Sequence record: OP595145.1
Source: Escherichia phage vB_EcoM_DE16
DNA: 64,000 bases
Direction: 5' to 3' (one strand)
Part shown: positions 19,964 through 38,248 of the stretch, one piece after another
Layout: the number at the start of each line of letters is the position of its first letter
Numbering within the stretch: the stretch's first letter is position 1
Made by a program: the position numbers and the translations under genes
The notes under the pieces: model-generated
Told to the model about the DNA's origin: nothing
The model's input: the letters and a program-made list of their open reading frames with translations, nothing else
Database searches by the model: none

Positions 19964-19984
19964 AAAGGGGCCGAAGCCCCTTGA
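19964..19984 (-). terminator. intercistronic hairpin GGGGCUUCGGCCCC (UUCG tetraloop)
   Basis: same hairpin recurs at 32064-32081 and 38233-38248, each just upstream of an SD. Confidence 0.55.
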
Positions 19985-19989
19985 GTGGT

Positions 19990-20805
19990 TTATTTGTTTA
20001 AGTGGTCTTCGACCATTTTAATGAAACCTTCATTGCTGAAGGCTGTTGCAGCTTTTTCTCGGTAAACAAAAACTCCACGATCTTCATAGAGAAGTGTTTC
20101 TTCGTAATTAACTCCAGGGTTAACTACAACCATTTTTGTACCCATACTAAGCGCAGGGAATAATTCCCAATTAAAATTGATAACTTGGTTTGAACATCCT
20201 ACTACTACAACCAAATCTTGCATGGTCAAAGTATCGAACAAGTGAGCCATATCTGCATACAAAGGTGCAGCCTCACCAAAAAATACAACATTAGGCTTCA
20301 CCCAGTTATAATCATCTATGTTTATACTATTGTAACCAATATCTACCAGTGTTTTGTAATCTCCAGGATGCATACGGTAAACTACTTCAGGAAGATATCC
20401 GTGTACGTGAATAACAGAATCTCTGTCTACACCTGCTCGCTCTAGTAGATCATCAACGTTTGTTGTCAAGTTTACTATTTGGTTAGGATATTCCTTAAAC
20501 CACTTTGCTATTTGAATATGTGCAGCATTAGGTTGTACATCTTTAAGCTCAACACGTCTTTTGTTATAAAATTCGTGTGTTTTGGCATACAAATCCATAC
20601 CGTTCTCGTCTACACCACCGACCACTGGAAGATCTGGAGATGTTCTAACACGATAACCTGCTTGGAAAGCTCCAATATCGCAGACCTCTTCTAAATCATA
20701 TTCTTCCCATAAAGCACGACCACTATCTGTGTCTGTTCTAAATGTTCGAATCCCACTGTCTGCACTTAAACCTGCACCGCTTACAAAAATCACTCGTCTT
20801 GGCAT
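19990..20805 (-). CDS. Sir2-family NAD-dependent deacetylase-like protein
   Basis: GAGLSADSGIRTFR (sirtuin NAD-binding motif) and downstream HVHG histidine; 271 aa. Confidence 0.65.
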   Translation of the reverse strand: MPRRVIFVSGAGLSADSGIRTFRTDTDSGRALWEEYDLEEVCDIGAFQAGYRVRTSPDLPVVGGVDENGMDLYAKTHEFYNKRRVELKDVQPNAAHIQIAKWFKEYPNQIVNLTTNVDDLLERAGVDRDSVIHVHGYLPEVVYRMHPGDYKTLVDIGYNSINIDDYNWVKPNVVFFGEAAPLYADMAHLFDTLTMQDLVVVVGCSNQVINFNWELFPALSMGTKMVVVNPGVNYEETLLYEDRGVFVYREKAATAFSNEGFIKMVEDHLNK

Positions 20806-21275
20806 TCTTCCTCCTCAAATGGATCATAAGAATTGTACTCGTAAGTATCATCTTCTGAAAATTCTACTTCGAAATAAATATCAAACTCTGCAAACAGACG
20901 TAGGATGTTAGACATGCTGTAATAATTATCGTAGGCAGATTCAGCTTCATAGTAAACATAAAGCAAATGGTTAGCCTTATCATCTTCCAAATATTTCCCG
21001 TCTGCATACGCATAGTCTGCATATGCTTTACCTGCATCTTCCACAAGAGAACGATCAAGCAGAGTAGGAAATGGTTTCTCTTTTTCTTTTAGTTTGCTCA
21101 CTAACCAATGTGCAATATCATTCCATTCTGCATCCATACCACTAAAGCAACTTGCTTCTTCTCCAAAAGAAGCTTCTCCTAAATCGCCACTAATACGAAT
21201 AACATTAGATGAATTATAGCCACACGTTTCACAATCAGAGTAACTATTATGCACATTGACATTTACTTGAAACAT
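20790..21275 (-). CDS. hypothetical acidic protein (161 aa)
   Basis: ORF in co-directional block. Confidence 0.5.
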   Translation of the reverse strand: MFQVNVNVHNSYSDCETCGYNSSNVIRISGDLGEASFGEEASCFSGMDAEWNDIAHWLVSKLKEKEKPFPTLLDRSLVEDAGKAYADYAYADGKYLEDDKANHLLYVYYEAESAYDNYYSMSNILRLFAEFDIYFEVEFSEDDTYEYNSYDPFEEEECQDE

Positions 21276-21333
21276 ATTCCCTCCTATAAAAGAAAAGCCC
21301 CCTGAAACAGGAGGCTTTGTTCAGAGGCTGGCA

Positions 21334-21987
21334 CTATACCAGACTTTGTAGGTATTTGTCAAGGGCTTCTTGATCGCCTTGACAAACATAGCAACGGAAG
21401 TCTTGAGCCGAAGGTTGTTTATTTTCATCCCAGTCCCAATAAACATTACCCTTATAACGTGAACCAGGAAACTCAAAAGAGGCTGTATGTGTAATGTATC
21501 CTGGGCCACCAGTGAAATCACAGAATGAGAATTGGGGGTATGCCGCCTTTACTGCCTCAATAAACCAAGCTTTACGATCTAAAGCTTCATTGATGCTATA
21601 CGCATGTCTCTCCATTTCTTCCCACGTTTTCCAGACACTTCTCTCATCAGGAGAAAAGACAAGCCATTCTGGAAGGTATAGAGTGTCATAGTAATCATCA
21701 TATTCGATCTCGGAGGCGCACGAAGCTGACTCCTCCAGTTTTGAGTAATCAAAAGCAGAATATACCCACCAACCATCTTCCAGTAACGCTTTGATAGGGA
21801 CGAAGCCTTTATCAGCATATTGATCGAATTGTTTGACACGGTGGCTTGTGCAGTCTTCAAACTCACATTCTAAACGATATGCACCTTTTCGACGAGCCTC
21901 AAGACCGTGTGTACTGAAAATAACAACACTTCCTTCACCATCATTACGATCTACTTGATAAGCAACCACTGGTTTTGAATTTGACAT
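21334..21987 (-). CDS. hypothetical protein (217 aa)
   Basis: ORF in co-directional block. Confidence 0.55.
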   Translation of the reverse strand: MSNSKPVVAYQVDRNDGEGSVVIFSTHGLEARRKGAYRLECEFEDCTSHRVKQFDQYADKGFVPIKALLEDGWWVYSAFDYSKLEESASCASEIEYDDYYDTLYLPEWLVFSPDERSVWKTWEEMERHAYSINEALDRKAWFIEAVKAAYPQFSFCDFTGGPGYITHTASFEFPGSRYKGNVYWDWDENKQPSAQDFRCYVCQGDQEALDKYLQSLV

Positions 21988-22670
21988 TATTTCTCCTTAT
22001 CTAGAAGATTGTTAGACAAAAACACTGCACGAGCAAAACCACGTGCGGTTAGTGATCTAAGTTGTTTTGTTTTTGCACTAGCTCCACCTAAGCTTTTCCA
22101 ACCCCAGAAGCAGCCTATATGATCTACTGGTTTCTTCACTGGTTGAACAAAACCATTGCCGTGCCAAATACAAGTTTTCTTTGTATACCCATCACGGGTA
22201 GGCATTTTAGGATGAAAGCTTCCTTCCTCTTCAAACAAATACCCACCATACTCATAAGGATCAAAGTAAAAATCGGGTTTACGCCATAAGGTTGAAAGTT
22301 TACCTACTGGGTTCTCAATCATCCAAGGAACATTATATTTGTTACCCAAAGCTTCCACTACACGAATATTAGCTAAAGCTTCATCCAATTCCTCTGTGCT
22401 GCGTTCGTGTTTGCTACCACTACCTGCTAACATAGTGCAAGGTGGAAATCCAAAAATAATATCGGGTTTAGGTATCCCATGATCTTCAGGGTTGAATGTA
22501 GAATCTATCCAGGCATTCACATAGGTTATGTTTGGGTGCTCCATCCTAACCTCGTATTTACCGTGATCCCCTTCATCAGCGTTTACACAAAAACACTTGT
22601 GACCTGCTTCGGCATAACGTAACACCATGATCCCAGATCCGTCAAACATAGACAAAACTGTTTTACTCAT
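21987..22670 (-). CDS. putative DNA cytosine-C5 methyltransferase-like protein
   Basis: motifs MFDGSG (motif I-like), GFPPCT (motif IV PC), ENPVG (motif VI ENV-like); start set at internal Met. Confidence 0.5.
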   Translation of the reverse strand: MSKTVLSMFDGSGIMVLRYAEAGHKCFCVNADEGDHGKYEVRMEHPNITYVNAWIDSTFNPEDHGIPKPDIIFGFPPCTMLAGSGSKHERSTEELDEALANIRVVEALGNKYNVPWMIENPVGKLSTLWRKPDFYFDPYEYGGYLFEEEGSFHPKMPTRDGYTKKTCIWHGNGFVQPVKKPVDHIGCFWGWKSLGGASAKTKQLRSLTARGFARAVFLSNNLLDKEK

Positions 22671-23076
22671 TACCCCTCCATTCAAGACAAGCCATAACTT
22701 TACGCCAATCACTTTCTGTAAGAAAAATCTCGTTTGCTTTCTTCCACAAATCTAAATCGTGAAGGGTTGGAATACGATATGTTAGTTCACAGAATCTATG
22801 CTCTTCTTCTGTAATATAACCAAAATGCAGAGCCACATCGTGAAACCAACACCAACCATGCATCTCTCGAACAACATGGTCATGTTGAGACATTATTTTA
22901 TGCCGTAAACCTAACCAACAAGGAACAGATACTTTAGTAGTCTTTAATCTGTGATCAACAGTATTAGAGTATTCAATAATAGCTGTCAGTTTCAATCGTG
23001 CTTTTTCTAAATCCTCATGGGTCACTTTGAAATAACTTTCTGAAAGATATCCACACATATTAATAACCTCCTTCAA
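22663..23076 (-). CDS. hypothetical protein (137 aa)
   Basis: ORF; weak R-x6-H pattern only. Confidence 0.5.
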   Translation of the reverse strand: MKEVINMCGYLSESYFKVTHEDLEKARLKLTAIIEYSNTVDHRLKTTKVSVPCWLGLRHKIMSQHDHVVREMHGWCWFHDVALHFGYITEEEHRFCELTYRIPTLHDLDLWKKANEIFLTESDWRKVMACLEWRGNE

Positions 23077-24001
23077 AAGGCTTAACTACATGTTGATTAG
23101 CTTTAAAACGTTCAACATAGTCGTTTTCGCCCATGTTTTCATATAGCTTAGTAACAACATAAAAGTTTTCCCAAGCATATTCCCTAAACCAACCACTAGT
23201 GATGGATGTGCAGACTTTAGATAAAGCCATTATAAAACTTTGCTTAGGGGTTGGACCTCCGATCTCTTCACCGAAAGGAATTTGTGAACGTTCCAAAGCC
23301 AAAACACACGCTTCTTCATAAACACCTAACAGGCGCACATGTTTTGGTTGAGCAAAAAACTTTTCTTTGCTGGTCATAACTTCACTTCCATCTTTCATAT
23401 AAGATTTATATGCTGGAGCATCCATTACCGCGATTGCTTCATGGATAGAATCATGATCATAAACATACGGAACCTCATCACCTTTAAAGAAGTCTTTACT
23501 TTTTACGTTTAAGTTCGGATGAGAGTAAGTGTATGTTTCTTTCTCACGCAACTCATAAATACTCTTAAGATTTTCTGGGATCTTTGCGCCCAGTGACCGC
23601 ATGAAATGAATATCTTTCATAGTTTTAAAGAAGTGAGGACTATCCTTTTTAAAACGATGACTCATTTTAAGAAGGTAGAGCACATCTAAAGGAGCAACAA
23701 CATGTCCAGCGTAAGTTCGACGAACATCATCAGAATCTTCACAATAACTAATCAAAGCTTCTGTGCTATCTCCTTGAGAAGCAATATCGTATTCCAAATG
23801 TGCACCAGCTATCATTTTGACGTGACCTTTGTTCCCTTTACGTTCTACAAGTTCAACAAACTCGTCTTGAGAGAACATTTTTGATAATTCTTCCCACTCT
23901 TGTTCTGTACACAGGTAATCTAAATCTACACAAGGGCGATACAAGTCTTTTCCCATGTCCATAGCATGAATTTGTAATGCACGGCTACCAATTAACACCA
24001 T
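23060..24001 (-). CDS. nucleotidyltransferase-fold protein (313 aa)
   Basis: N-terminal LIGSRA ... VDLDYL resembles minimal NTase GS ... DxD signature. Confidence 0.45.
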   Translation of the reverse strand: MVLIGSRALQIHAMDMGKDLYRPCVDLDYLCTEQEWEELSKMFSQDEFVELVERKGNKGHVKMIAGAHLEYDIASQGDSTEALISYCEDSDDVRRTYAGHVVAPLDVLYLLKMSHRFKKDSPHFFKTMKDIHFMRSLGAKIPENLKSIYELREKETYTYSHPNLNVKSKDFFKGDEVPYVYDHDSIHEAIAVMDAPAYKSYMKDGSEVMTSKEKFFAQPKHVRLLGVYEEACVLALERSQIPFGEEIGGPTPKQSFIMALSKVCTSITSGWFREYAWENFYVVTKLYENMGENDYVERFKANQHVVKPFEGGY

Positions 24002-24061
24002 AATATTTCTCCTCTATTGGTTGATAGGTTAAGTTTATCAAGCTTCCAGATTCCTGTCAAT

Positions 24062-24090
24062 AAAAAACCCGCCGAAGCGGGTTATTATTT
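24062..24090 (-). terminator. Rho-independent terminator (AACCCGC-UUCG-GCGGGUU + U run on minus strand)
   Basis: GC stem, tetraloop, flanking A/T runs. Confidence 0.65.
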
Positions 24091-24091
24091 A

Positions 24092-24364
24092 CTAACACAT
24101 TGAGGAAGAAGAGATCCAAACACCTCTTGTGGTTAAACCATTTTCATCCAACTCTACACCGTAATCTTCACAAATGAAATCAATATAGTGATCTGCGGCT
24201 GGCGTTCCTGTAGGGTAATAAGTTTCTCCGTTACCGTAGTCACCTATCCAAGCTTGTTCCTGAAACTGTTCACAAAGTTCTTCAATTTCCTTACGAAACT
24301 TTCTTTGTGCTTGTTCCATCTCTTTAACTTTCTTTTTTATCAGCAGTTCGCCTTCAGACTCCAC
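24092..24364 (-). CDS. small acidic protein ending VWISSSSMC (C-terminal motif family member)
   Basis: 90 aa ORF; C-terminal W-x-SSS-x-C shared with two neighbours. Confidence 0.55.
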   Translation of the reverse strand: MESEGELLIKKKVKEMEQAQRKFRKEIEELCEQFQEQAWIGDYGNGETYYPTGTPAADHYIDFICEDYGVELDENGLTTRGVWISSSSMC

Positions 24365-24373
24365 AATCTCTCC

Positions 24374-24592
24374 TTAACAGCTACTACTGTGCCAAACGCC
24401 TTGAGAATTAACGACGAAACCATCATCACCTTCACCATAACAAGAAGAGGATTGCCAATCTTCAAAACAGATTGCGTCATCTTCTAAACTAAGACCAAAA
24501 CCAGCATCTTCAGCTTCTTTTGTAAGTTCGTCCACTAAAGCCATAATAGCTTGGGCTTTTTCAGTTAATTCTTCAACATTACGATAACTCAT
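24374..24592 (-). CDS. small acidic protein ending VWHSSSC (family member)
   Basis: start set at internal Met overlapping upstream stop. Confidence 0.5.
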   Translation of the reverse strand: MSYRNVEELTEKAQAIMALVDELTKEAEDAGFGLSLEDDAICFEDWQSSSCYGEGDDGFVVNSQGVWHSSSC

Positions 24593-24867
24593 TAGTATTT
24601 CTCCTCTGGTTGGAAAACTGAACGACAAGCCCACATACTAGCTTCTTTTAAATGTTTAATAGCACAACGGATTTGGTCAATACGTTCGTATGCAATATCT
24701 AATTCTTTTTCTGTGCCGTCAAAAGACCCATGATATGCTTCACAATACTCTTCCTCTAAGGCTTTGAAGATTAAACCTAAACGCTCTTCTGCATCTTTAA
24801 TAGCGTTAACCTTGCCAATCTTATCGTCAGTATGCGCCTTATAACCTTTGATATCTTCGATTCCCAT
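24592..24867 (-). CDS. hypothetical protein (91 aa)
   Basis: ATG at 24867 preceded by AGGAGG on minus strand. Confidence 0.55.
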   Translation of the reverse strand: MGIEDIKGYKAHTDDKIGKVNAIKDAEERLGLIFKALEEEYCEAYHGSFDGTEKELDIAYERIDQIRCAIKHLKEASMWACRSVFQPEEKY

Positions 24868-24878
24868 TTTACCTCCTA

Positions 24879-25076
24879 TTAACAACTTAAAGAAGATGGA
24901 TGCCAATTTGTTCCAGTATTCTCATTTTCGTCTTCTGGATCATAATAACCACCCATCCCATATTCAGGGGAGAAACGGAAACCTTTACCAGTCTCATCTG
25001 CTAACTGCTCTGCTTCCGCTAAAGCCTCATAAGCTGCTTTTACGGCTTCTTCTACTGTTTTAAACTTGGTCGTCAT
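24879..25076 (-). CDS. small acidic protein ending NWHPSSLSC (family member)
   Basis: 65 aa ORF, third copy of C-terminal motif. Confidence 0.5.
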   Translation of the reverse strand: MTTKFKTVEEAVKAAYEALAEAEQLADETGKGFRFSPEYGMGGYYDPEDENENTGTNWHPSSLSC

Positions 25077-25350
25077 AAAATTTCTCCTCTCCTAAAGACA
25101 TGTTGACATGAAATGCACGATATGTAAATTCGTTGTCCGTTGTGTTTGAATAAAACTCAAATTGAACAACACCATCTTGAGAAGACAGATACATGCCAAT
25201 TTGAACTGTTCCTTCTGGTACCAGGTAAGCATACTCTGGACGTAGTGTTACATTGTAAAAATAAAGTTCCCCAACACCCATTTCATCCCAAGCTTCCCAA
25301 GCGGTAACGAAATTACTTTCAAAACTTGTTACTGATCCGAACTCTGCCAT
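25060..25350 (-). CDS. hypothetical protein (96 aa)
   Basis: ORF in co-directional block. Confidence 0.5.
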   Translation of the reverse strand: MAEFGSVTSFESNFVTAWEAWDEMGVGELYFYNVTLRPEYAYLVPEGTVQIGMYLSSQDGVVQFEFYSNTTDNEFTYRAFHVNMSLGEEKFYDDQV

Positions 25351-25841
25351 AAAACCTCCTCAATCTTGTAGTTTGACTCCATCTCCAACACATTTCCACG
25401 AACGTCTCTCCGAAGAAAGGCATAAGCTTTATTAGGTATTGTAGACTCATATTTAACCATATCTGGCACAGCAAAAGATACTACTACTCCTGCTGGGCTT
25501 CTGTCAAGAGCCTTATTAATATTTCTAAGGATATCGTTAGCCAAGATTTCTGCCAATTCTCCAAGAACAGTTTCGGTTATATCTTTATATCCCATTAAGT
25601 ATTTGTTGATATCTTTCATCTCTGTATTGTTCAGAGTATAGTCCAAAGGATAGAAATTCAAAGCGGAGTCACTTTTATGTGTCCACATGAAATGCACCCG
25701 ATCCGAGCAGAATCGTAACCCTCTGTGAAGAATATCTTCTACAACAGGGAGAATTTCTTTTGTCACATCATTAACCATGTTGTAATCTAAGATTTCTGCC
25801 AAGTTTGTTCTTTGTTCACCACGTTTACGTTTAGGAATCAC
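25329..25841 (-). CDS. hypothetical protein (170 aa)
   Basis: ORF in co-directional block. Confidence 0.55.
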   Translation of the reverse strand: MIPKRKRGEQRTNLAEILDYNMVNDVTKEILPVVEDILHRGLRFCSDRVHFMWTHKSDSALNFYPLDYTLNNTEMKDINKYLMGYKDITETVLGELAEILANDILRNINKALDRSPAGVVVSFAVPDMVKYESTIPNKAYAFLRRDVRGNVLEMESNYKIEEVLWQSSDQ

Positions 25842-26412
25842 TTGTTATTGCCCTCATTACCAAAGGTCGTAGAAAATCGTAAATCTCTTGTTTTGTTTTC
25901 CCACGAATGTTTAAACAAGGAACATTATTGGCTTTAGCTATCTTCCAAGCTGTAGCTGTTCCACCTTTTGCATCTCCATGTTTATCAGTATTAGCACAAG
26001 CCAACAAGAAACATGATGGAGCAGGATTCTCCAAATCTCTACCTAACACTTGATGCACATTACGTTGGTGCAATTTTCTAGCACCCTGCTTAAGCTTTTC
26101 ATAGGCTGGGTGAACATCTTTGATCCATTGCACAGAGATAGCATAGTTCATTGTGTCTGGTTTTGCAAGAACAATAACATCCCCTGGAATCTGATTACCT
26201 TTGAAATTTTCCCAAGGAACATAAATCTCCTTGTTAGTAGGATTTTCAGACTCTTGGACACCTGTTTCAAAAGCAGAATCACTACCTTCTGCCTTCCCAG
26301 ACCTTAATTTAAACCCAAGGTTTGAAAGCCATTTCCCTATGCCTACCATCAAAGCCCACTCTTCTTCGGATATGTCTCTACTTCCAACTCCCGTATAGAA
26401 CAGTTCTGCCAT
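25831..26412 (-). CDS. Rossmann-like DprA/SLOG-superfamily-like protein
   Basis: GVGSR ... SGKAEGSDSAF pattern reminiscent of DprA/Smf SGxAxGxD core; ATG 26412 after GAGGTGA. Confidence 0.4.
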   Translation of the reverse strand: MAELFYTGVGSRDISEEEWALMVGIGKWLSNLGFKLRSGKAEGSDSAFETGVQESENPTNKEIYVPWENFKGNQIPGDVIVLAKPDTMNYAISVQWIKDVHPAYEKLKQGARKLHQRNVHQVLGRDLENPAPSCFLLACANTDKHGDAKGGTATAWKIAKANNVPCLNIRGKTKQEIYDFLRPLVMRAITSDS

Positions 26413-26419
26413 AATCACC

Positions 26420-26728
26420 TCAACAAGTAATTTCAAAAGGTGTATAGGGTTCCGTATTTCTCATGATCCAAGGACTGCTAGGATTGCTCGGATCATAAGG
26501 ACCAAAAGGTTTTATGGTCGGTTGTGTTTCTTTCTTCTGAATCTCTTCAAAAATACGACGAAGTTCAGAATATTCTTGATCCACCATAAGATTCGGTGCA
26601 TCTGATTCTACAGCTTGCAGGTTATCTTCCTTAAGAACAATCTCACGAACAAGATTAACATCTTCTGTTTCTAAGATAACTTCTTTACGGATATTACCTA
26701 CACTTTGAATAATTGTAATCTTATACAT
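26420..26728 (-). CDS. hypothetical protein (102 aa)
   Basis: ORF in co-directional block. Confidence 0.5.
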   Translation of the reverse strand: MYKITIIQSVGNIRKEVILETEDVNLVREIVLKEDNLQAVESDAPNLMVDQEYSELRRIFEEIQKKETQPTIKPFGPYDPSNPSSPWIMRNTEPYTPFEITC

Positions 26729-27471
26729 TAATCCTCCTCAAGAGTTGAATAAAATTGAAGACCACCGTCCATATCGAAATAAGCAAATGTTAAGTTATTA
26801 TTGAACACAGATCCAGTATCCATATAAACACGATTCGCATTGATAATAGGTGTTTTTACATAAGAGTGTCCATGAAACACATAATCCACACCCATCACAA
26901 CAGGAAGTTTCATTCCCTCTTTAGCACAGTCTACCATATCTCTGTCCCACATAAGTGCTTCAGCAAAACGGTTTTCCTGTGTTTTTGTCATCTTCGAAAT
27001 GTATTCTGGAATATCTGTTACAGGGAGATATTCCAAAGAAGATGGATACCCACCATGAATAAACGCAAGTTTCATGCCTCTGTAGTTAACAATGAGAACA
27101 ACAGGTAAATCTTCTGTCATCATTGCTAAGGCTGTAGCTCCTTCTTCACCACATTCTTCAAAGACCGTATATCCTCCATTTTGATACCAACACTCGTAGT
27201 AGCTACGATCTCCTTCCAGCATACCTTTAATCATCATGTCTTCATGATTGCCACGAATAGCGTAGCGATTGTGTTTACGAGTAAATTCTAAAACACAACG
27301 AAAGTTTTGCTTTCCACGGTCAGTAAGATCTCCTAGAGATACAACCACATCTGTATCTCGGATACCTAACTTTGCCTTTCCTTTTTCATACAAATTATAA
27401 CAACCGTGTAGATCTCCAATTATAAAAAGATCTTGATCGCTTTTAACAGTAATTTCTCTGTGTATGATCAC
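26728..27471 (-). CDS. Ser/Thr protein phosphatase (calcineurin-like metallophosphoesterase)
   Basis: GDLHG, GDLTDRG and GNHE metal-binding motifs in order. Confidence 0.8.
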   Translation of the reverse strand: MIIHREITVKSDQDLFIIGDLHGCYNLYEKGKAKLGIRDTDVVVSLGDLTDRGKQNFRCVLEFTRKHNRYAIRGNHEDMMIKGMLEGDRSYYECWYQNGGYTVFEECGEEGATALAMMTEDLPVVLIVNYRGMKLAFIHGGYPSSLEYLPVTDIPEYISKMTKTQENRFAEALMWDRDMVDCAKEGMKLPVVMGVDYVFHGHSYVKTPIINANRVYMDTGSVFNNNLTFAYFDMDGGLQFYSTLEED

Positions 27472-27797: not shown

Positions 27798-27807
27798 TCC
27801 TTCCTCC

Positions 27808-30054: not shown

Positions 30055-30059
30055 GTTTG

Positions 30060-30752
30060 TTAAATAGCGGTTCCTTCGAAATCCGCCACATTTACGAGAT
30101 TAATATTTTCAGATTTAGAAGTCAAGTTGTTTTCTGCAACAGATTTTTCTTCAGTATCCGCCTCGTTACCTGCCACGTTACGAGGTTCTTCTTCACCGTA
30201 GGGATTACCGAATTTCAAAAGATTGATTAATTCTTCTTTGGAGAAGTTTTCTAAATCATCGTCTGTTAATTCAATAATCTCGTCTTGTTCTTCAATAAAT
30301 GTTTCACCACCAGAAAAAGCATCTCGCTTTTTAGCTACTTCCATAGCCTGTTCTGGTGTTGCCCCTGCATCAAGAGCAGCTAAAGCAAAGTCTGACCCGC
30401 TTCCTACCGCATAATATTCTTCATCAATCGGATATGCACGTGTTGGGTTGTTACCTTCGTGCAGGAAAATACGTCCGTCTGGATGAACAACAAGTGCAAT
30501 AAACTCTTCATCTTCTTTATCTGGATCAGAGTGAATCATCAAACCAGGGACAGCATCACGTGCTGCTTCGCACTGTAGATTTTGTTCAAACCATTGAAAG
30601 AAAGAAAGCACGGAGGTCAGACGACCAGCACCACCTACAAGGTAATCTCCAATTTTTCGGACCTTTTTGAAATTAATAGAATCTACACGTCCACCAAAAG
30701 TTACCTTACCGTCACTCAAAATCTTATTTTTGGTTGCAATAATTGTCGTCAC
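30060..30752 (-). CDS. HslV-like Ntn-hydrolase peptidase (proteasome beta-type) with acidic C-terminal extension
   Basis: N-terminus MTTIIATKN (Thr right after Met), KKVRK, VGGAGRLTSVLSFFQWFEQNL and AVGSGSDFALAA align with HslV landmarks. Confidence 0.6.
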   Translation of the reverse strand: MTTIIATKNKILSDGKVTFGGRVDSINFKKVRKIGDYLVGGAGRLTSVLSFFQWFEQNLQCEAARDAVPGLMIHSDPDKEDEEFIALVVHPDGRIFLHEGNNPTRAYPIDEEYYAVGSGSDFALAALDAGATPEQAMEVAKKRDAFSGGETFIEEQDEIIELTDDDLENFSKEELINLLKFGNPYGEEEPRNVAGNEADTEEKSVAENNLTSKSENINLVNVADFEGTAI

Positions 30753-31255
30753 TATTCTTCCTCCTCTGTTAATGTTTTAAGAACCGCTTTCCCGCCATTC
30801 ACATATTTGCAGATGTATTCTATCGCACGTAGTGTCTCTTTGTCAACAAAAATTTGATCGGACGTTGCGAGCGGGTTATTAAGAAGATCACTGCAATCAC
30901 GAACAAGCAGTGCTTTCTTATTAAACAAATTACTTAAGAACAGTAACTTCGCCTCTTCTTCTGTTATGTGCAGAAGGCTAGGATCGGAGCCAGCTATTCC
31001 TATTATACAATCAAACAAGCTTTCTTTACTATCAGAAAGTTCTTGAAAATGGTTTAAAAGCCAATCTTCTCCTAGACACCAACATTTAAACATTTCCAGT
31101 TTATCTCGGAGGGTCATATTCTCTAAAGTAAGAGCAATCTCTTTTTCAATATGGTTTACACAAATTTGACGAAATTCGTTAGGTTTTACGAGTCCCGTTT
31201 GATAGCACTCATCTATACCGCTTCTTCCGATAGCTATTGTTGCTACACCCATCAA
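30752..31255 (-). CDS. hypothetical protein (167 aa)
   Basis: ORF in co-directional block. Confidence 0.5.
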   Translation of the reverse strand: MMGVATIAIGRSGIDECYQTGLVKPNEFRQICVNHIEKEIALTLENMTLRDKLEMFKCWCLGEDWLLNHFQELSDSKESLFDCIIGIAGSDPSLLHITEEEAKLLFLSNLFNKKALLVRDCSDLLNNPLATSDQIFVDKETLRAIEYICKYVNGGKAVLKTLTEEEE

Positions 31256-31287
31256 TCCTCCTTATAAATGGCTTCCCTGCCATGTTA

Positions 31288-32046
31288 TTAAATAAACACT
31301 TCAGTAATCAGTTTAGACAAACGTCCACGTTTATTATCGTCCGTTGTCAGTTCAACGTATCCAATAAAATCTACAATTGGCTCACGAACACCTTCTTCAT
31401 TTTCTGGATACAAAAGTTCCAAAATTTGATGCAGACCATTGCTACGTTTTTTAATTGCATATGTCTGGCGAACATCGCCTAATACAATAACATGCGTATT
31501 AATACCTGCACGTTCAATAAGAAGTTTAAGTGTTTCTGTTGACATAAGTTGTGCTTCGTCAATAATGACGATTGTATTATCCAGGGTAGCCCCCAACAAA
31601 TAGTTAGGAATATTCAATTCGATCTTACCTGATCCAATATCGTTTTCCAATTTGTTGGCTGTCATGAATTGCTGGAAAATACGTTTTGTAGATTCATAGT
31701 GTGCTGCTAGTTTATCTGTTTTATCCCCAGACAAGAAACCAATCTGGTCATCTCCGACTTCAGTAGGGTTCTTAATAAAAAGTAGTTTACGGAAGTCTCC
31801 TGAACGAAGCATCTGCAAAGCTTTCCATAAAGCAACAGAGGTTTTACCAGTCCCTGCCGGAGCATTTACAACAGTCAGATCATTCCAAATCATGCTTTGA
31901 ACAATCTTATTTTGGTCCCCTTCAGGCATAAATTCATCTAAACGGTAATCGTCATTACCTACCGCTTTTGCTGCATAACGGCTTTCAATCTTTGCTGAAT
32001 TAGCCAGTTTCTGCCGTTGTGTTTTAGCTGCGGTTTTATTTCCCAT
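31288..32046 (-). CDS. phoH: PhoH-like ATPase
   Basis: Walker A NAPAGTGKTS and PhoH-like downstream conservation; ATG 32046 after AAAGGAG. Confidence 0.8.
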   Translation of the reverse strand: MGNKTAAKTQRQKLANSAKIESRYAAKAVGNDDYRLDEFMPEGDQNKIVQSMIWNDLTVVNAPAGTGKTSVALWKALQMLRSGDFRKLLFIKNPTEVGDDQIGFLSGDKTDKLAAHYESTKRIFQQFMTANKLENDIGSGKIELNIPNYLLGATLDNTIVIIDEAQLMSTETLKLLIERAGINTHVIVLGDVRQTYAIKKRSNGLHQILELLYPENEEGVREPIVDFIGYVELTTDDNKRGRLSKLITEVFI

Positions 32047-32063
32047 AGTAGCACTCCTTTTAG

Positions 32064-32081
32064 AAGGGGCCGAAGCCCCTT
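32064..32081 (-). terminator. intercistronic hairpin GGGGCUUCGGCCCC
   Basis: between lysozyme stop and phoH SD; identical core to 19964 and 38233 copies. Confidence 0.55.
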
Positions 32082-32083
32082 TA

Positions 32084-32584
32084 TTAGTTGTAAGCATCTA
32101 AAGTTCCAGAAGTCAGAACTTTAATTACTCGTTCAGCACGGTTTGGCGTCTGGCTATACCATCGGCTTTTACGCATGTTTTTACCTGCTTGAGTATAATA
32201 TGCATTGCTGATTAAAGTCAAGCTATTTTGAAACCCTTCAGCACCTTTTAACCCCAACTGGAAAACCATGTTGATTATTCCCAGTTTACGAGTATCACTA
32301 ACCTTATCATAGATTGGTGATAAGATAGTACTGTTTTTTATGTCTCTCTTCACTTTTGCAACATCGTCAGCAAAGATTTGACGGGCTTCTTTTTCTGTGA
32401 TAACTCCATTAGTCTTACGACCAAGAAGATTATCTAAGATTTGAATAGCCTTTGCTTTATCTTTTATTTTAGTCAGAAGGTGTCCTATGCCGACTGTCCA
32501 ATAACCAAGATGGTCTTGATAAACAGTAAGCTTCAGTCCTTCATCGACTCGTAGCATATCAAACTCATCTACTACTTTAGCCAT
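32084..32584 (-). CDS. T4-type lysozyme (glycoside hydrolase family 24 endolysin)
   Basis: MLRVDEGLKLTVYQDHLGYWTVGIGHL and RWYSQTPNRAERV mirror T4 lysozyme landmark segments. Confidence 0.85.
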   Translation of the reverse strand: MAKVVDEFDMLRVDEGLKLTVYQDHLGYWTVGIGHLLTKIKDKAKAIQILDNLLGRKTNGVITEKEARQIFADDVAKVKRDIKNSTILSPIYDKVSDTRKLGIINMVFQLGLKGAEGFQNSLTLISNAYYTQAGKNMRKSRWYSQTPNRAERVIKVLTSGTLDAYN

Positions 32585-32746
32585 TTACTTCCTATTCGTC
32601 GTCTCCTACTCCGTGATCCAACTCGTTAAACAACAGATGTTCTGGAGAAGTTTCACGTTTTGGTTTCGTTTTCTTTATGTTGGACTTCAGCTCATTTGCC
32701 AAAGCACGAGAAAAGATCTTACGTTTCTGTTTACTTTTCATAATTG

Positions 32747-33007
32747 TTACTCCGCAATTTGAGCCATGAGATCACGCAGTTCGGTAAAACCGCCTACGTA
32801 TGTTACCTCCCCGTTCACTTCAGACAGAATTTGTGGAAATGTGCGTGGAGGAACTCCGGTAAGATCAACAACTGTTTTAGTCATTGATTCTAAATCATAG
32901 TCTTGGTCAAGACTTAAATATTCAAACTGTTTATTGCGCATAGTCAATAGTTGTTTTGACATTTCACAAAATTGACAGTTAGGTTTACCAAAAATTACAA
33001 ATTCCAT
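32747..33007 (-). CDS. glutaredoxin-like protein (CxxC redoxin)
   Basis: 86 aa, FGKPNCQFC active-site motif. Confidence 0.7.
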   Translation of the reverse strand: MEFVIFGKPNCQFCEMSKQLLTMRNKQFEYLSLDQDYDLESMTKTVVDLTGVPPRTFPQILSEVNGEVTYVGGFTELRDLMAQIAE

Positions 33008-33849
33008 TACCTCTCCTTATTAAGTAATACTGCTAAAGACTGTTCAATACCTTTATTTAAATCTGATTTTGTAAGATAGTGACTGGTTACTAGTTGTGAC
33101 TTCACCGGACGTGCTGCTGGAGCATTATAGGTTGAAGCTGATACCGCCGATATCTTAACAGGTTCTGGCATCTGTGTCAAGATCTTTTCCGCAAACTCCG
33201 CCCAAGAAATAAGATGGCTTCCTGCAAAATGGTAAGTCTTAACAGACCTTGACCAACCTGTTTTTAATACTTCAAAAATAGCTTCTGCTAAATCTGGAGC
33301 ATATGTTGGACAAGATAACTGATCAGCAACAATAATAAAATCACGTTGTCCATCATTATAGCGAGACAACATGGTTTTTAGAAAGTTATTTCCAAATTCG
33401 CTATATACCGAGGCTGTTCGAATAATATATGCATTTGGGTTAACTCCTCGCACCATTTTTTCACCAAGTTCTTTCGTATACCCATAATTGTTTATTGGGT
33501 TAGGTGTAGTATCTTCAAAAATAGGATGAGAATAATTAAAAATATAGTCTGTGGAAATATGCACAAAATCAATTTTAAGTTTGCTGCACACTGCCGCAAT
33601 ATTTGCAGGGCCATAAGCATTAACAGCCAAAGCAGTAGCAAAATCTTGTTCGGCTTTATCTACAGCCGTATAAGCGGCGCAATTAATAACACCATCTACA
33701 TAATCTTCAACAATAGCGTTTCGCACAGCTTCAAAATTTGTAATATCTACACGTTCTTTAGGATAAATTAAAGATACATTTGCAGGAGCAACTTTACGTA
33801 AAGCTTGTCCCAGTTGTCCATTACCACCCAATACCAGATATGTTAGCAT
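33007..33849 (-). CDS. rmlD: dTDP-4-dehydrorhamnose reductase
   Basis: N-terminal LVLGGNGQLG Rossmann motif, length 280 aa, position in rmlBACD cluster. Confidence 0.75.
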   Translation of the reverse strand: MLTYLVLGGNGQLGQALRKVAPANVSLIYPKERVDITNFEAVRNAIVEDYVDGVINCAAYTAVDKAEQDFATALAVNAYGPANIAAVCSKLKIDFVHISTDYIFNYSHPIFEDTTPNPINNYGYTKELGEKMVRGVNPNAYIIRTASVYSEFGNNFLKTMLSRYNDGQRDFIIVADQLSCPTYAPDLAEAIFEVLKTGWSRSVKTYHFAGSHLISWAEFAEKILTQMPEPVKISAVSASTYNAPAARPVKSQLVTSHYLTKSDLNKGIEQSLAVLLNKER

Positions 33850-34409
33850 ACACCCTCGCTACGTAACTGTTGAAAAGATTTAGCCATTGCATCTTTTGTT
33901 GATAGGATAGGTTTAAAACCTTCATCAAAAATCATATCGAAGCCCCAATCGATCCCTATATCAGGATCATCCCAACGTAAACTTTGTTCACTAGAAGGGT
34001 CGTATGGAGTTGTGCATTTGTATTCAAAGATAGCATCCATACTCAAAACTATAAAACCATGTGCCAAACCAGGTGGAAGCCAAAACTGCGTATGGTGTCG
34101 TGCACGAAGAACAACACCGTCCCAAGCACCGTAAGTAGGACTATCTTTACGTAAGTCTACAGCGAAATCCAATACTTCACCACTTACACAACGAACAAGC
34201 TTACCTTGCGGATTATTTGTTTGAAAGTGCATTCCTCGCAAAACACCGAAGTTTGATTTAGACATGTTATCTTGAACGAAAGTTTGTCTACCAATAATAT
34301 CTTCGTATTTTTGTTCATTATATGTTTCTAAAAAGAAACCACGGTCATCTTTATAAACGTCTGGTTTGATAATTACCGCACCTTCAATTTTTGTTTTTTC
34401 TACTTTCAT
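33843..34409 (-). CDS. rmlC: dTDP-4-dehydrorhamnose 3,5-epimerase
   Basis: cupin-type RmlC region [12 protein letters not shown]; start at ATG 34409 overlapping rmlA stop (ATGA). Confidence 0.75.
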
Positions 34410-35284
34410 TTTCCCTCCGCTAATTTGAGTAGGTATTGCCCGTACTCTGTTTTCTTCAGTGAGTTTCCATGATAGACCAAAGTCTCTAAAGAAATCCACC
34501 CTTTTTTGAAAGCAATTTCTTCCAGGCACGCAATCTTCAATCCTTGACAGTTCTCAATAGTCTGCACGAATTGACCAGCTTCCATCAGACTGGCGTGTGT
34601 TCCTGTATCAAGCCAAGTAAATCCTCGTCCGAGAACTTCTACTTGTAACTTCCTGTCTTCGAGGTAGCTGCGATTGATATCGGTGATCTCCAGTTCTCCA
34701 CGCGCGGAAGGGGTTACTTCTAATGCACGTTGAATAACAGAGTTATCATAGAAATACAAACCTGTGACAGCATAATCTGATTTAGGATTTTCAGGTTTCT
34801 CTTCAATAGAAATAACTTGACGATTACTCCCAAATTCAACCACACCGAATCGTTCAGGATCTTTCACCAAACACCCGAAGATACAAGCTCCGCCCCAAAC
34901 ATCTACCATCTCACTAGCGTTAATCAGTAGTTTACCAAAGCTTTGTCCGAAGAATAGGTTGTCACCTAAAATAAGAGCAACAGAGTCTTCTCCGATAAAA
35001 TCTTTACCGATGATGAAAGCGTCCGCAAGACCTCGTGGCTCGGATTGGATTGCGTAAGTGAGTTTTATCCCAAACATAGACCCATCTCCAAGAAGATGCT
35101 CAAAGTCTTCCTGATCGCCTGGTGTGGTGATGATTAAGATATCCTTAATGTCAGCCAACATCAATACCGATAAAGGGTAGTAGATCATGGGTTTGTCATA
35201 CACAGGGAGCAATTGCTTGCTCACACTGCGTGTTACCGGATGAAGGCGGGTTCCACTTCCTCCCGCCAAAATAATACCTTTCAT
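34406..35284 (-). CDS. rmlA: glucose-1-phosphate thymidylyltransferase
   Basis: [11 protein letters not shown] ... [17 protein letters not shown] signature. Confidence 0.85.
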
Positions 35285-35292
35285 AACCCTCC

Positions 35293-36285
35293 TTAAATCT
35301 TCTCACTCCACCATTGAGGGTTGTTTAAGTACCATTCAATCGTTGAGTAGAGATCTTGTTCAAATGTAGAGTTTGCACTCCAACCCAGTTCAGACTCTAT
35401 TTTAGAAGGATTGATTTCATAACGCAAGTCATGTCCTTTACGATCTTCAACAAAAGTTATCAAGTTGGAAGAAGGGTAGGTTCCTGCTTCTGGATGTACA
35501 GCATCCATGTAGTCACAAACCATATAGATGATCTCCATATTGGTTTTGGGATTACGTGTTCCAACATTATACGTTTGACCTGGTTCTCCACCTGTTGCCA
35601 CTTGAAGAATAGCTCGCGCATGATCCTCAACAAAAAGCCAGTCTCGCACCTGATCGCCTTTACCATACACCGGAATCTCTTTATTCGTCAAGATACTTGT
35701 GATGATTTTTGGGATCAGCTTTTCTGGATGTTGATAAGGTCCAAAGTTATTGGAGCAGTTGGTTATCACAACAGGTAAACCGTAGGTACGGTACCAAGCT
35801 TTCACAAGATGGTCAGATGCTGCCTTAGACGCACTGTACGGGCTTGAAGGAGCATAAGCTGTCTCTTCGGTAAAGGGAACGCCAGAGTCTGCCATATCGC
35901 CGTACACTTCGTCTGTGGAGACGTGTACGAACATCTTCAGTTTATTTTTTGGGAGGAGCCTTGCAGCTTCCAATAAATTGTATGTGCCAATAATATTGGA
36001 GTCGATGAAAACTCGTGGATTCTTGATAGAATTATCCACATGACTCTCTGCCGCTAAGTGAATGATGAAATCGGGATTGCACTCTACTACTAAACTTTTG
36101 ACCTGGGTTTCGTTTGCCAAATCTGTTATGCTTAGTTTAACGTGAGTGATATCGCCTACATTCTCAATATCTGCTGCATAGCCCATCTTATCAACGACAA
36201 AAACTTCGTTATTGGGATCTTGACAAAGAGAGCGCACCACGGCACTCCCAATAAAACCAAGACCACCTGTTACCAGATAGCGCAT
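35293..36285 (-). CDS. rmlB: dTDP-glucose 4,6-dehydratase
   Basis: [10 protein letters not shown] Rossmann motif and YSASK catalytic Y-x3-K. Confidence 0.85.
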
Positions 36286-36294
36286 CAGTTCTCC

Positions 36295-36621
36295 TTACCA
36301 GACGTTTTGTGATACTAACGTTTCAGTTTCAATATGGTACTTCTCGTAGAGTTCGAAATAAATCTCATTAGCTTTTTTATCCAAACTTGTGAGGTCTATT
36401 GCCCGTGCGCTGCATCCTGACGCAAGTTCAATACCAAAGACACAATCTTCAGGATCTGCATCATACCACGGGGAGACACTCACTAACCCAATACCTTCGT
36501 AAAGAAACCAGTTGAAATCCCCATCGAATTGATCCTCAATCTGCGGATCGCCTTTAAACACTTCTTCCCATTTCTTATATGGTGCGCCTTGCACCATCTT
36601 CCATTCGATATCAATCCCCAT
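36295..36621 (-). CDS. hypothetical protein (108 aa)
   Basis: ORF in co-directional block. Confidence 0.5.
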   Translation of the reverse strand: MGIDIEWKMVQGAPYKKWEEVFKGDPQIEDQFDGDFNWFLYEGIGLVSVSPWYDADPEDCVFGIELASGCSARAIDLTSLDKKANEIYFELYEKYHIETETLVSQNVW

Positions 36622-36916
36622 TTTTCATCTCCTCCTCTTCTTGAGCAGCTTTAATAATTGCTTCATAAATATCGTAAGCAATGCCTCCACAACATCTAGC
36701 TTCGAAAGCTATTGCTTCTGCAATGTGATCTGTTAATTCTCGTGGAATGCGGACATACTCTTTTTCACTCTCCATCTTCTACCTCCAACCCTTCTTTTTC
36801 AAAGACTACTACTCGTCCCTCACCATGACAATTCAGGCAAGGAAATGTTACCATAATTTCCACTTCCATCTGTCCCGTCCCACCACACACAGGACAAAAA
36901 ATAAGTTTTTCAGCCA

Positions 36917-37126
36917 CTATTCCTCCTTAATTATTTCAAATTTGGCAACACCATTTACAATAATATGACCACAAGACATAACTCCTAGCCAAGGATCGCC
37001 GTTTTTCTTCAGGCGTTTACCGAATACATCACAAAAACCATTCTTCATTTCAGAGGCTTCATAAGAAGCCCCTTTATCAAAAACGTCTTTGAATGTGTCG
37101 ATTATACCAACACATTTCAAAATCAT
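36917..37126 (-). CDS. hypothetical protein (69 aa)
   Basis: ORF immediately downstream of nrdB. Confidence 0.45.
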   Translation of the reverse strand: MILKCVGIIDTFKDVFDKGASYEASEMKNGFCDVFGKRLKKNGDPWLGVMSCGHIIVNGVAKFEIIKEE

Positions 37127-38211
37127 TAGAAGTCAAGCTCCTCATCATCAGAGAGATCTTTGTTAGCTGAATTCAATTTGTAATTAGTTAACTGAATCTC
37201 TTGGGCTGCTGACTGAATCAAATCAGGATTCAACCATTTTTCCATCCAAGCTAAAGGGCTATGTTTAGGTGCTTTAAACTTGGCTTTCATTTTCAATCGA
37301 CGATAAATAGGAGCAGCATTGAAATAAACCCACTGTTTAGACAATTCGGCGTTAAGACCTACAATAAAACGACCTTCACTAAACAGGTAGTCACACCATT
37401 GTTCCTCTTGTTCAACAACAGTGTCGAGGATCAAAGTCAACTCTTCAATATTGTCTTCGTAAATTTTACGCCAAATTGGGTCATGCATCAATGCATCAAT
37501 TACAGCATAATCCATTTTAACATGCAGGATTTCATCTAGCATAATTTTCTGGATCAGTTTACAAGCCCCAACAAACAGTTGTTGTTCTGCCATAGCAAAA
37601 GTAGCAGAGAAGGAAGATATAAACTGAATACCTTCTAATCCAATCAGGGCTACCATCCCTTTAAGAATCAGCAGTCGAAGTTCATCGTTAGCTTCAATCA
37701 ATCCTAGAGCATACTTATGACCAGCTTCTTCCAATTGACCCATGATATCAGCAATGATACCCATACGATTGAAAATTTTATCATTAATCATAATCTGATT
37801 GATGACTTCGATTGGATCTGGAGTACATTGACGGATTATTTCAGAATACGTTAACGCATGGAGAACTTCCATTTCACTCTGCTTCATCATCATAGCACAG
37901 GCTTCATTGTTACTCAAGAATGGAGAGAACAAAGTGATGATTGATTTTGCAAGAGAATCATTTTCCCATTGGAACGATAAGTTTTTAATCATAACATCAT
38001 AGTTGTTTTTAGAACAAGCTACGAAATCTTTACGTGTCTGATCCAGATTGACTTCATTCTCATCCCAATCTTGTGCTTTTTGAAGTTTGTAGAGTTTGTG
38101 CATCTCTGGATAAGTTACGTTAACAGAATCAAAGATCCCTAACTGTTCCCCTAAAAATACTGGATATTTTCCTGTTTTGTAAACTTCATTGTGTAAATTA
38201 ATTGCTGCCAT
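37126..38211 (-). CDS. nrdB: ribonucleotide reductase class I beta subunit
   Basis: 361 aa, acidic C-terminal tail DDEELDF, adjacent to nrdA; SD GAGGAG. Confidence 0.8.
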   Translation of the reverse strand: MAAINLHNEVYKTGKYPVFLGEQLGIFDSVNVTYPEMHKLYKLQKAQDWDENEVNLDQTRKDFVACSKNNYDVMIKNLSFQWENDSLAKSIITLFSPFLSNNEACAMMMKQSEMEVLHALTYSEIIRQCTPDPIEVINQIMINDKIFNRMGIIADIMGQLEEAGHKYALGLIEANDELRLLILKGMVALIGLEGIQFISSFSATFAMAEQQLFVGACKLIQKIMLDEILHVKMDYAVIDALMHDPIWRKIYEDNIEELTLILDTVVEQEEQWCDYLFSEGRFIVGLNAELSKQWVYFNAAPIYRRLKMKAKFKAPKHSPLAWMEKWLNPDLIQSAAQEIQLTNYKLNSANKDLSDDEELDF

Positions 38212-38232
38212 TTAAAATTCTCCTCAATAAAA

Positions 38233-38248
38233 GGGGGCCGAAGCCCCT
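38233..38248 (-). terminator. intercistronic hairpin GGGGCUUCGGCCCCC
   Basis: between nrdA stop and nrdB SD. Confidence 0.55.

Follow-up and report, generated by a model that had tools for sequence, protein, structure and literature searches.

The stretch of DNA analysed here (64,000 nucleotides, hereafter the window) is that of a Phapecoctavirus, a phAPEC8-like E. coli myovirus, and it holds exactly three copies of the 14-mer GGGGCTTCGGCCCC, at 19967-19980, 32066-32079 and 38234-38247; each copy is on the minus strand, the mRNA-sense strand at these sites. No further match was found in the window even with 2 mismatches, and 100 dinucleotide shuffles give an expectation of 0.00 against the 3 copies observed. 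Extension by A/U pairs turns the first two copies into 7-bp hairpins, AAGGGGC-UUCG-GCCCCUU, at 19965-19982 (hairpin A) and 32064-32081 (hairpin B), and the third copy is a 5-bp stem, GGGGC-UUCG-GCCCC, at 38234-38247 (hairpin C). At all three sites a stop codon is followed by the hairpin and then by an AGGAG Shine-Dalgarno (SD) sequence. The sequence-only reading had reported one hairpin repeated three times on the minus strand in this setting, which the positions of the 14-mer confirm; its sites hold, and its end positions are 1-3 nt off.

Hairpin A (7 bp, -12.1 kcal/mol) lies before the 19674 ORF, 7 nt past the stop codon of a Sir2-like gene (19992-19990), and is followed by the tail UCUUAUU, the SD (19957-19953) and an ATG at 19946. 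Hairpin B (7 bp, -12.1 kcal/mol) begins 2 nt past the stop codon of a lysozyme gene (32086-32084) and leads through the tail CUAAA to the SD (32058-32054) and the phoH ATG at 32046. Hairpin C (5 bp, -9.6 kcal/mol) occupies the nrdA-nrdB gap, between the nrdA stop codon (38282-38280) and the nrdB SD (38224-38220) and ATG (38211), with the tail CUUUUAUUG. The SD starts 5-9 nt past each hairpin and 17-22 nt separate hairpin and start codon. Both the minimum free energy and the centroid folds contain the hairpin, and the SD is unpaired there. None of A, B and C has a promoter-like motif immediately before it. Similarity among the three copies stops at the A/U-extended hairpin, their flanks being unrelated, and a MITE-like or duplication origin of the copies was rejected on this ground.

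The nrdA-nrdB junction carries in addition the remnant of an HNH endonuclease gene (38224..38279, minus strand), recognised by comparison with nieznany L001 27206-27931. It retains the SD and the first 7 codons, with the ATG changed to GTG at 38268, and, fused to hairpin C, yields a mini-ORF of 15 codons (38268-38224) whose frame continues across the hairpin. TAAAG microhomology bounds the deletion, which ends exactly at the 5' A-tract of hairpin C. Three indel states of this junction occur, namely empty with the HNH remnant, with the HNH gene, and with a 110-aa ORF.

The related UUCG hairpins announced near 19327, 24062 and 30039 are also real, and they lie at 19325-19346 (plus strand, hairpin G), 24066-24083 (minus, hairpin D) and 30039-30054 (minus, hairpin F). 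Hairpin D, AACCCGC-UUCG-GCGGGUU then UUUUUAU (z = -2.9), is directly followed by a conserved promoter-like motif, TTGACA-17-TAAACT (24060-24032, minus), and because of this motif we read the pair as a predicted terminator-promoter operon boundary. Hairpin G shares with D the 18-mer core AACCCGCUUCGGCGGGUU and ends in a U6 tail; since plus is the sense strand up to about 19650, G too is in sense orientation. Just upstream of it lies a promoter-like TTGACA-17-GATAGT (19279-19307, plus), and promoter-like motifs stand about 10 nt upstream of the hairpins at 19325 and 21318-21294. Hairpin F, UGCCCC-UUCG-GGGGCA, has the two stem arms of A-C exchanged, and its tail UUUCUUAA is followed by an AGGAG SD. 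A seventh UUCG hairpin, absent from the earlier reading, was observed at 28604-28627 (minus, hairpin E). It has the form AUACUCCCUU-UUCG-GAGGGAGUAU, with 10 bp, a U.G closing pair and z = -3.0, and its tail UUUAAGGAGG leads directly into the SD.

All 7 UUCG hairpins of the window are intergenic and in sense orientation, and no CGAA loop occurs on the sense strand (binomial p=0.016). The loop is closed by C-G on a Watson-Crick stem in 6/7 of them, hairpin E being the exception, and these 14-24 nt structures have predicted energies of -9.6 to -13.2 kcal/mol (nearest-neighbour model including the tetraloop bonus). Taking an intrinsic terminator as a GC-rich stem-loop followed by about 5 or more U in 8 nt, this U content is reached by D (7/8), A, C and G (6/8 each, counted for A past the last G-C pair) and F (5/8), and not by B or E (3/8 each); in the relatives, hairpin B has 4-5/8. 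A simple terminator scan of the sense strand flagged A, C, D and F and made no sense-strand call at B. Placement before an SD is shared with hairpins of the window at 18772, 21294 and 46716 that are not of the UUCG type. Furthermore, the UUCG type makes up 7/9 intergenic hairpins in one module of about 19 kb as opposed to 0/12 elsewhere in the window (p=3e-4). Such clustering is not predicted by a purely generic model.

The hairpin of A and B recurs far outside this phage. At least 120 unrelated contigs of IMG/VR, with GC contents of 21-65%, carry the 18-mer AAGGGGCTTCGGCCCCTT in the same context of a stop codon, a U-rich tail and often an SD with an ATG. Among the matches listed, an ORF on the same strand ends within 60 nt upstream of the 18-mer in 100/108 (opposite strand, 32/108), the 10-nt tail window contains at least 6 T in 99/113 (usually 6-9), and an SD, a start codon and an ORF follow within 45 nt in 42/113. 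A GCCCC-UUCG stem likewise occurs in at least 120 contigs, this figure being a lower bound for the two commonest stems, and GGCGC-UUCG in 103; by comparison, a loop permuted to UCUG on the GGGGC stem was found in 2 contigs only and is thus about 60-fold rarer than UUCG. Moreover, AAGGGGCTTCGGCCCCTT is present unchanged in phage T4 (29952-29969, sense strand), where it lies 2 nt past the regA stop codon, and the strong UUCG hairpins in the first 50 kb of T4 are 8/8 in sense orientation. The same 8/8 was obtained in SF1-1, a complete genome of the genus, in which copy C has a pair-breaking G>A change. The genome-wide count that had been proposed as a check found only two exact copies in this complete genome.

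Relatives with 73-78% nucleotide identity have the GGGGC/GCCCC stem unaltered at each of the three orthologous junctions. A site bound in a sequence-specific manner would likewise be expected to keep its stem unchanged where the flanks have 73% identity. The loop, on the other hand, varies among UUCG, UACG, GAAA, GCAA and GUAA, all of the stable UNCG or GNRA classes, and CUUUGU also occurs. Orthologs of hairpin A have UACG or GAAA, and those of hairpin B have GCAA, GUAA or GAAA on the identical stem; junction B is based on a PhoH search that gave 9 loci, too few for statistics, and across orthologs whose PhoH proteins are 70-100% identical the loop varies and the stem does not. Inversion of UUCG into CGAA as the source of this variation was rejected, CGAA being present in no ortholog. 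No compensatory stem changes were found across the relatives; since the stems are invariant, covariation gives no support. As read from these comparisons, selection acts on a stable tetraloop-capped stem and not on the exact 14-mer.

From the exact reuse of the hairpin, the sequence-only reading had concluded that it is a dedicated element and not a set of generic terminators. This conclusion is not supported by the comparison, being countered by the 18-mer in T4 and in unrelated contigs, by the commonness of UUCG stems relative to the permuted loop, by the unrelated flanks, by the loops of the orthologs and by a pre-SD placement that is not unique to the hairpin. Indeed, a curated RNA family would be expected to show loop conservation, sequence past the hairpin and restriction to a lineage, and none of the three was found. 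What stands of the claimed RNA element is the RNA level, consistent with the sense orientation of UUCG hairpins here, in SF1-1 and among the strong ones of T4. The RNA-level reading draws only on the asymmetry of strands and on the class of loop. A dedicated element whose exact GGGGCUUCGGCCCC is recognised by a factor of the phage or the host, to process or regulate the RNA of all three downstream genes, would fit three identical copies where none is expected, a stem that is invariant in relatives and the clustering of UUCG hairpins in one module. We nevertheless consider such a phage-specific element very improbable given the loops of the orthologs, the 18-mer of T4 and unrelated contigs, the broken pair in copy C and two exact copies of SF1-1, the unrelated flanks, the lack of an Rfam family and the statement in PMC4371310 that the UUCG loop has no known binding proteins.

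The hairpins A-G are, very probably, ordinary intercistronic C(UUCG)G hairpins acting in mRNA, of the CUUCGG class of Tuerk 1988. This class is already known and is not special to this phage. The three identical copies can with good confidence be put down to convergence on the few sequences that are thermodynamically best (cUUCGg on a 5-bp stem of a G-run and a C-run) and not to copying of an element. Within operons, the hairpins would most likely be intrinsic terminators of a leaky kind that also protect 3' ends. The hairpin would fold instantly during transcription, and at the U-tract after A, C, D, F and G RNA polymerase would terminate in a fraction of rounds, the next gene being carried on read-through transcripts. 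Terminated or processed RNA would then end in the hairpin, which may block 3'-to-5' exonucleases and stabilise the upstream cistron; hairpin B, given its poor U-tract, would probably be mainly a stability barrier. The downstream genes need read-through because the 17-22 nt to the start codon leave no promoter room, and A-C, which appear to lie within operons and have the following SD at a distance of 5-9 nt, must be leaky if they terminate. The partial terminator or stabiliser that the earlier reading had offered among its options is accordingly the most reasonable function.

Other functions were weighed against leaky termination with 3'-end protection. The hairpins could be a pure barrier of mRNA stability or processing with essentially no termination, which stops 3' exonucleases after endonucleolytic cuts so that the half-lives of the cistrons differ in the manner of REP and malE-malF. 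The weak U-tract of hairpin B in the window and in relatives agrees with this, as does the lack of promoter room for the downstream genes, so that most polymerases must pass. It is unlikely all the same, in view of the canonical U-tracts of A, C, D and G (6-7/8), the conserved promoter after D in a classic terminator-promoter layout and the 6-9 T that usually follow the same hairpin in other phages (10-nt tail window, matches listed). A role in translation, be it shielding of the SD from long-range pairing, coupling or uncoupling of ribosomes between cistrons, or 5'-terminal stabilisation of transcripts that start just upstream, is suggested by the SD 5-9 nt past A, B and C that is unpaired in the centroid folds, by the promoter-like motifs about 10 nt upstream of two hairpins (19325 and 21318-21294) and by the 5' CUUCGG hairpin reported to stabilise T4 gene 32 mRNA (PMC8948821). 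However, A, B and C have no such motif directly upstream, many copies of the hairpin in other phages precede a promoter or no gene, and intergenic gaps of 40-70 nt explain the closeness of the SD, which makes this role highly doubtful.

A function in DNA, with the hairpins marking a site of recombination or of homing-endonuclease action or the edge of a cassette, is favoured by the three indel states beside hairpin C and by the endpoint of the HNH deletion at its 5' A-tract. Against it, the strict sense-strand UUCG and the selection on RNA-specific stable tetraloops are unexpected for a DNA palindrome, and the deletion is accounted for by the 5-nt TAAAG microhomology; we regard a DNA-level function as extremely improbable. 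Finally, the UUCG-capped hairpins may form an RNA-handling regime specific to the module of about 19 kb, a nucleotide-metabolism/early-middle module, in which the stems are frozen and the loops hop between UNCG and GNRA in the relatives, and to this we give a small chance. If true, a factor that reads the G-run/C-run stem or a defined set of attenuators could fix the stoichiometry of neighbouring cistrons, for example nrdA:nrdB, and the hairpins might bound the gain and loss of cassettes such as the HNH endonuclease and the 110-aa ORF. For annotation, ordinary C(UUCG)G hairpins of this kind would be entered in Phapecoctavirus operons as predicted intrinsic terminators of the leaky type or as hairpins that stabilise mRNA, and beyond annotation they matter little. 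They offer, furthermore, a natural illustration of selection on tetraloop class and stem stability over sequence, and a caution that a 14-18-mer hairpin reused exactly in one genome is not evidence for a dedicated element.

Several known classes were compared with the hairpins. Rfam returned no family for the hairpin at the gathering threshold or at E<=1 over 19-39 kb, where only tRNAs were found; Phe_leader, rsmX and istR were sub-threshold chance matches overlapping terminator-like hairpins and were rejected. A T7-type RNase III processing site was likewise rejected, the stems being 5-10 bp where such a site has an RNA duplex of about 20 bp or more and, in most cases, an internal loop. Our search of the Phapecoctavirus/phAPEC8 literature found no transcript-end mapping, only genome papers with software-predicted terminators, such as the 55 of ASO2A (PMC10612097), and a literature search linking intrinsic terminators with UUCG tetraloops in phage gave no match.

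Two later papers (PMC8948821, PMC4371310), citing Tuerk et al. 1988 (PNAS 85:1364), describe CUUCGG hairpins as a common feature between phage genes, with a particular abundance in T4. As far as that account goes, the T4 hairpins share with ours a C-G-closed UUCG, a short G+C stem, an intergenic position, the mRNA-sense orientation and several occurrences per genome. They differ in that T4 belongs to the Straboviridae and this phage to the Stephanstirmvirinae, that here UUCG is confined to the module of about 19 kb, and that three copies with one common stem are present, known in this phage from sequence alone. With the intrinsic (Rho-independent) terminators of E. coli and its phages our hairpins have in common the GC-rich stem, the 4-nt loop, the upstream A-tract, the downstream U-tract and the position past a stop codon, whereas B and E have weak U-tracts and A, B and C lie inside apparent operons. 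REP elements are imperfect palindromes of about 35 nt that follow a family consensus and number in the hundreds. In contrast to REP/BIME, the hairpins described here are minimal (14-18 nt), are present in 2-3 identical copies per genome and have no consensus past the hairpin; what they share with REP/BIME and malE-malF-type hairpins is a stable intercistronic stem-loop, a potential obstacle to 3' exonucleases and a potential means of expressing neighbouring cistrons differently.

The 14-mer GGGGCTTCGGCCCC matches the window exactly three times, at 19967-19980, 32066-32079 and 38234-38247, all on the - strand, with no further match in the window at up to 2 mismatches, versus an expected count of 0.00 in shuffled sequence. 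This confirms the sequence-only reading that one hairpin is repeated on this strand (hairpins A, 19965-19982; B, 32064-32081; C, 38234-38247), and the order of stop codon, hairpin and Shine-Dalgarno (SD) of the next gene holds at all three sites. Indeed, hairpin A follows the Sir2 stop after 7 nt as AAGGGGCUUCGGCCCCUU and is continued by UCUUAUU, AGGAG, 6 nt and an ATG (19946); hairpin B follows the lysozyme stop after 2 nt as the same AAGGGGCUUCGGCCCCUU, then CUAAA, AGGAG, 7 nt and the phoH ATG (32046); and hairpin C lies 32 nt past the nrdA stop, with GGGGCUUCGGCCCC, CUUUUAUUG, AGGAG, 8 nt and the nrdB ATG (38211). The related UUCG hairpins reported near 19327, 24062 and 30039 are real, being located at 19325-19346 (+; G), 24066-24083 (-; D) and 30039-30054 (-; F), and a seventh, absent from that reading, lies at 28604-28627 (-; E). 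Predicted stabilities of the UUCG hairpins range from -9.6 to -13.2 kcal/mol, and in predicted folds of 70-90-nt contexts the hairpins are found in MFE and centroid structures alike, with the SD unpaired.

Over 31000-39000 (8 kb) the window shares 97-98% identity with phAPEC8-like E. coli myoviruses, e.g. nieznany (NC_052659) and ESCO5, and it is best placed in Phapecoctavirus, Stephanstirmvirinae. Its GC content is ~38-39% and, from GC skew and transferred annotation, genes lie on the + strand to ~19.65 kb, on the - strand to ~56.3 kb and then on the + strand again. Hairpins A, B and C are all within the - strand block, which encodes Sir2, methyltransferases, PhoH, a T4-type lysozyme, glutaredoxin, dTDP-rhamnose enzymes, NrdB and NrdA. 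The hairpin at 19647-19670 (AAAGGCAUCC-ACUU-GGGUGCCUUU), where the + and - blocks converge, is flanked by A/T tracts on either side and resembles a bidirectional terminator. At 57066-59174 (+) there are 11 clustered tRNA genes (Rfam RF00005, 39-72 bits).

The hairpin DNA is nearly palindromic and the orientation of the loop is therefore informative. UUCG is on the mRNA-sense strand in 7/7 window hairpins (p=0.016), and no CGAA loop occurs among the sense-strand hairpins of the window. Likewise, 8 sense UUCG and 0 sense CGAA hairpins were counted in the complete genome of the close relative Shigella phage SF1-1, and 8 strong sense UUCG and 0 sense CGAA hairpins in the first 50 kb of T4. Sense-only UUCG in the window, SF1-1 and T4 is a signature of selection on the transcript.

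Of 9 strong intergenic sense hairpins at 19.3-38.3 kb, 7 are of the UUCG type, versus 0 of 12 elsewhere in the window (Fisher p=3e-4). UUCG-capped hairpins are thus within one ~19-kb module (19325-38247), outside of which window hairpins have diverse 3-8-nt loops; in SF1-1, 5 of the 8 UUCG hairpins are in the corresponding block. A possible reason for this confinement is the history of a module whose gene content is T4-like; another is a temporal class in common. The left end of the window also has two near-identical hairpins, AAGGGGCGCAC[T/C]AAGCGCCCTTT, at 9-31 and 574-596 (+), ~565 nt from each other, and the adjacent short-ORF region of SF1-1 (74.7-80.8 kb; 24693-30843 of its locus L126) holds four AUGG-loop hairpins spaced by ~1.3-2.4 kb, three of them reading G[G/C]GGCA-AUGG-UGCCGC. 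These are repeated intergenic hairpins of another, separate family.

The orthologous junctions were compared in nieznany (97%), Pseudomonas phage PsgM04F (78%), Klebsiella phage FKP3, Escherichia phage muut (Justusliebigvirus, 73%) and eight usable IMG/VR loci found with PhoH (70-100% protein identity), a ninth such locus at 51% protein identity having a different junction. In the window and relatives the stem GGGGC/GCCCC and its A/U extension are kept at junctions A, B and C while the loop varies, being UUCG, UACG or GAAA at A, UUCG, GCAA, GUAA or GAAA at B, and UUCG (twice), GAAA or one 6-nt loop at C. The tetraloop variants all come from the extra-stable UNCG and GNRA classes, which speaks for selection of a cap that folds fast and is very stable, and not of a recognition sequence. 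Compensatory changes are absent from the stems, and covariation is therefore uninformative. Hairpins D and G share a second identical 18-mer, AACCCGCUUCGGCGGGUU, which relatives conserve (muut has UUCA). In SF1-1, a single G>A breaks one pair in hairpin C (L125 38495-38520; GGGAC-UUCG-GCCCC) and another does so in hairpin G (L125 and L126, 55.85 kb; CCCGC-UUCG-GCGGA); some damage is thus tolerated in these hairpins. Together, the sequence comparisons demonstrate purifying selection on the hairpins for their stability class.

The 18-mer common to hairpins A and B, AAGGGGCTTCGGCCCCTT, occurs in at least 120 IMG/VR contigs, with a locus GC of 21-65% and unrelated flanks. Among the IMG/VR matches listed, 100 of 108 non-redundant occurrences have the end of a same-strand ORF (60 codons or more) no further than 60 nt upstream, and 32 of 108 that of an opposite-strand one; furthermore, at least 6 T in a 10-nt tail window beginning at the two terminal stem T's are found in 99 of 113, an SD, start codon and ORF (at least 50 codons) within 45 nt downstream in 42 of 113, and a downstream TTGAC[AT] in 19 of 113. 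As controls, the arm-swapped AAGCCCC-TTCG-GGGGCTT was present in at least 120 IMG/VR contigs and AAGGCGC-TTCG-GCGCCTT in 103, but the original stem with the permuted loop TCTG in only 2. The identical AAGGGGCTTCGGCCCCTT is found in T4 (NC_000866, locus L362) at 29952-29969 on the - strand, which is the sense strand, between the regA stop, 2 nt away, and gene 43; the T4 gene 60 bypass-region hairpin (2834-2857) is a cUUCGg hairpin as well. A genome-wide count of the 14-mer, proposed with the sequence-only reading, gave only 2 exact copies in the complete SF1-1 genome, one at junction A and one at B; copy C of SF1-1 carries the pair-breaking G>A. Given the IMG/VR spread, the T4 identity and these 2 copies, the hairpin is not a multi-copy dedicated repeat, and it appears to be one of few near-optimal sequences reached independently by many phages.

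Placement next to the ribosome-binding site is not special to UUCG hairpins, since an SD also directly follows the non-UUCG window hairpins at 18772 (...CUUUUAAAAGGAG), 21294 (...UCUUUUAUAGGAGG) and 46716 (...UUUUUAGGAGG). The intergenic gaps of 40-70 nt are filled by stop, hairpin, SD and start codon, and the hairpin-to-start distance of 17-22 nt at A, B and C is too short for a promoter; the 90-aa ORF, phoH and nrdB would therefore have to be translated from read-through RNA or from RNA begun upstream of the hairpin. Hairpin D, directly followed by a conserved TTGACA-17-TAAACT promoter, has the sequence layout of a classic terminator-promoter boundary. Promoter-like motifs were also seen within 19279-19346 (+; TTGACA-17-GATAGT) and 21362-21294 (-; TTGACA-18-TATAGT with a TG extension), ending ~10-18 nt upstream of strong hairpins, which would therefore be near the transcript 5' end; each may be a 5' stabiliser, or the upstream gene's terminator overlapping a promoter.

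The nrdA-nrdB junction exists in three indel states among the window and relatives. In the window (38224-38282, -) it is 'empty' apart from the SD and the 7 initial codons, with GTG in place of ATG, of an HNH endonuclease gene that nieznany carries (L001 27206-27931). This remnant is joined to hairpin C via a TAAAG microhomology deletion, and the 15-codon mini-ORF left reads through the hairpin. In SF1-1 (L125 38488-38868), PsgM04F, FKP3 and muut, the hairpin is instead followed by a ~110-aa ORF.

As to function, each hairpin is a GC stem with a tetraloop cap, intergenic and on the sense strand, between an A-tract and a U-tract. The 8 nt past the last G-C pair contain 6 U in A, C and G, 7 in D and 5 in F, and a consensus scan gave sense-strand terminator-like calls for A, C, D and F. 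As intrinsic terminators, the hairpins would work with graded and incomplete efficiency, and they would also shield RNA 3' ends. The count is low in B and E (3 each), and the same scan made no sense-strand call for B; for these reasons B seems a better candidate for a pure stability or processing barrier, as E probably is. The 'partial terminator or stabiliser' proposed earlier is the best functional reading available for these sequences.

The further proposal of a dedicated element rather than generic terminators is not supported, the loops varying in relatives and the 18-mer being present in at least 120 IMG/VR contigs and in T4. No Rfam family matched the hairpins, and a dedicated RNA family was excluded by three tests, which asked whether the loop is conserved, whether similarity extends beyond the hairpin and whether the sequence is restricted to a lineage. 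The hairpin is real and non-random, but it is an ordinary element of a kind known since 1988. Tuerk et al. 1988, as cited in PMC8948821, described UUCG hairpins of this class in T4, and reverse-transcriptase stops and mRNA stabilisation are among the roles reported for them; PMC4371310 gives the same background and adds that the UUCG loop has no known binding protein. Compared with intrinsic terminators, most copies have the expected structure, the U-tract falling short in B and E, while with the T4 C(UUCG)G class the window hairpins agree in every sequence-level feature, up to identity with the T4 example.
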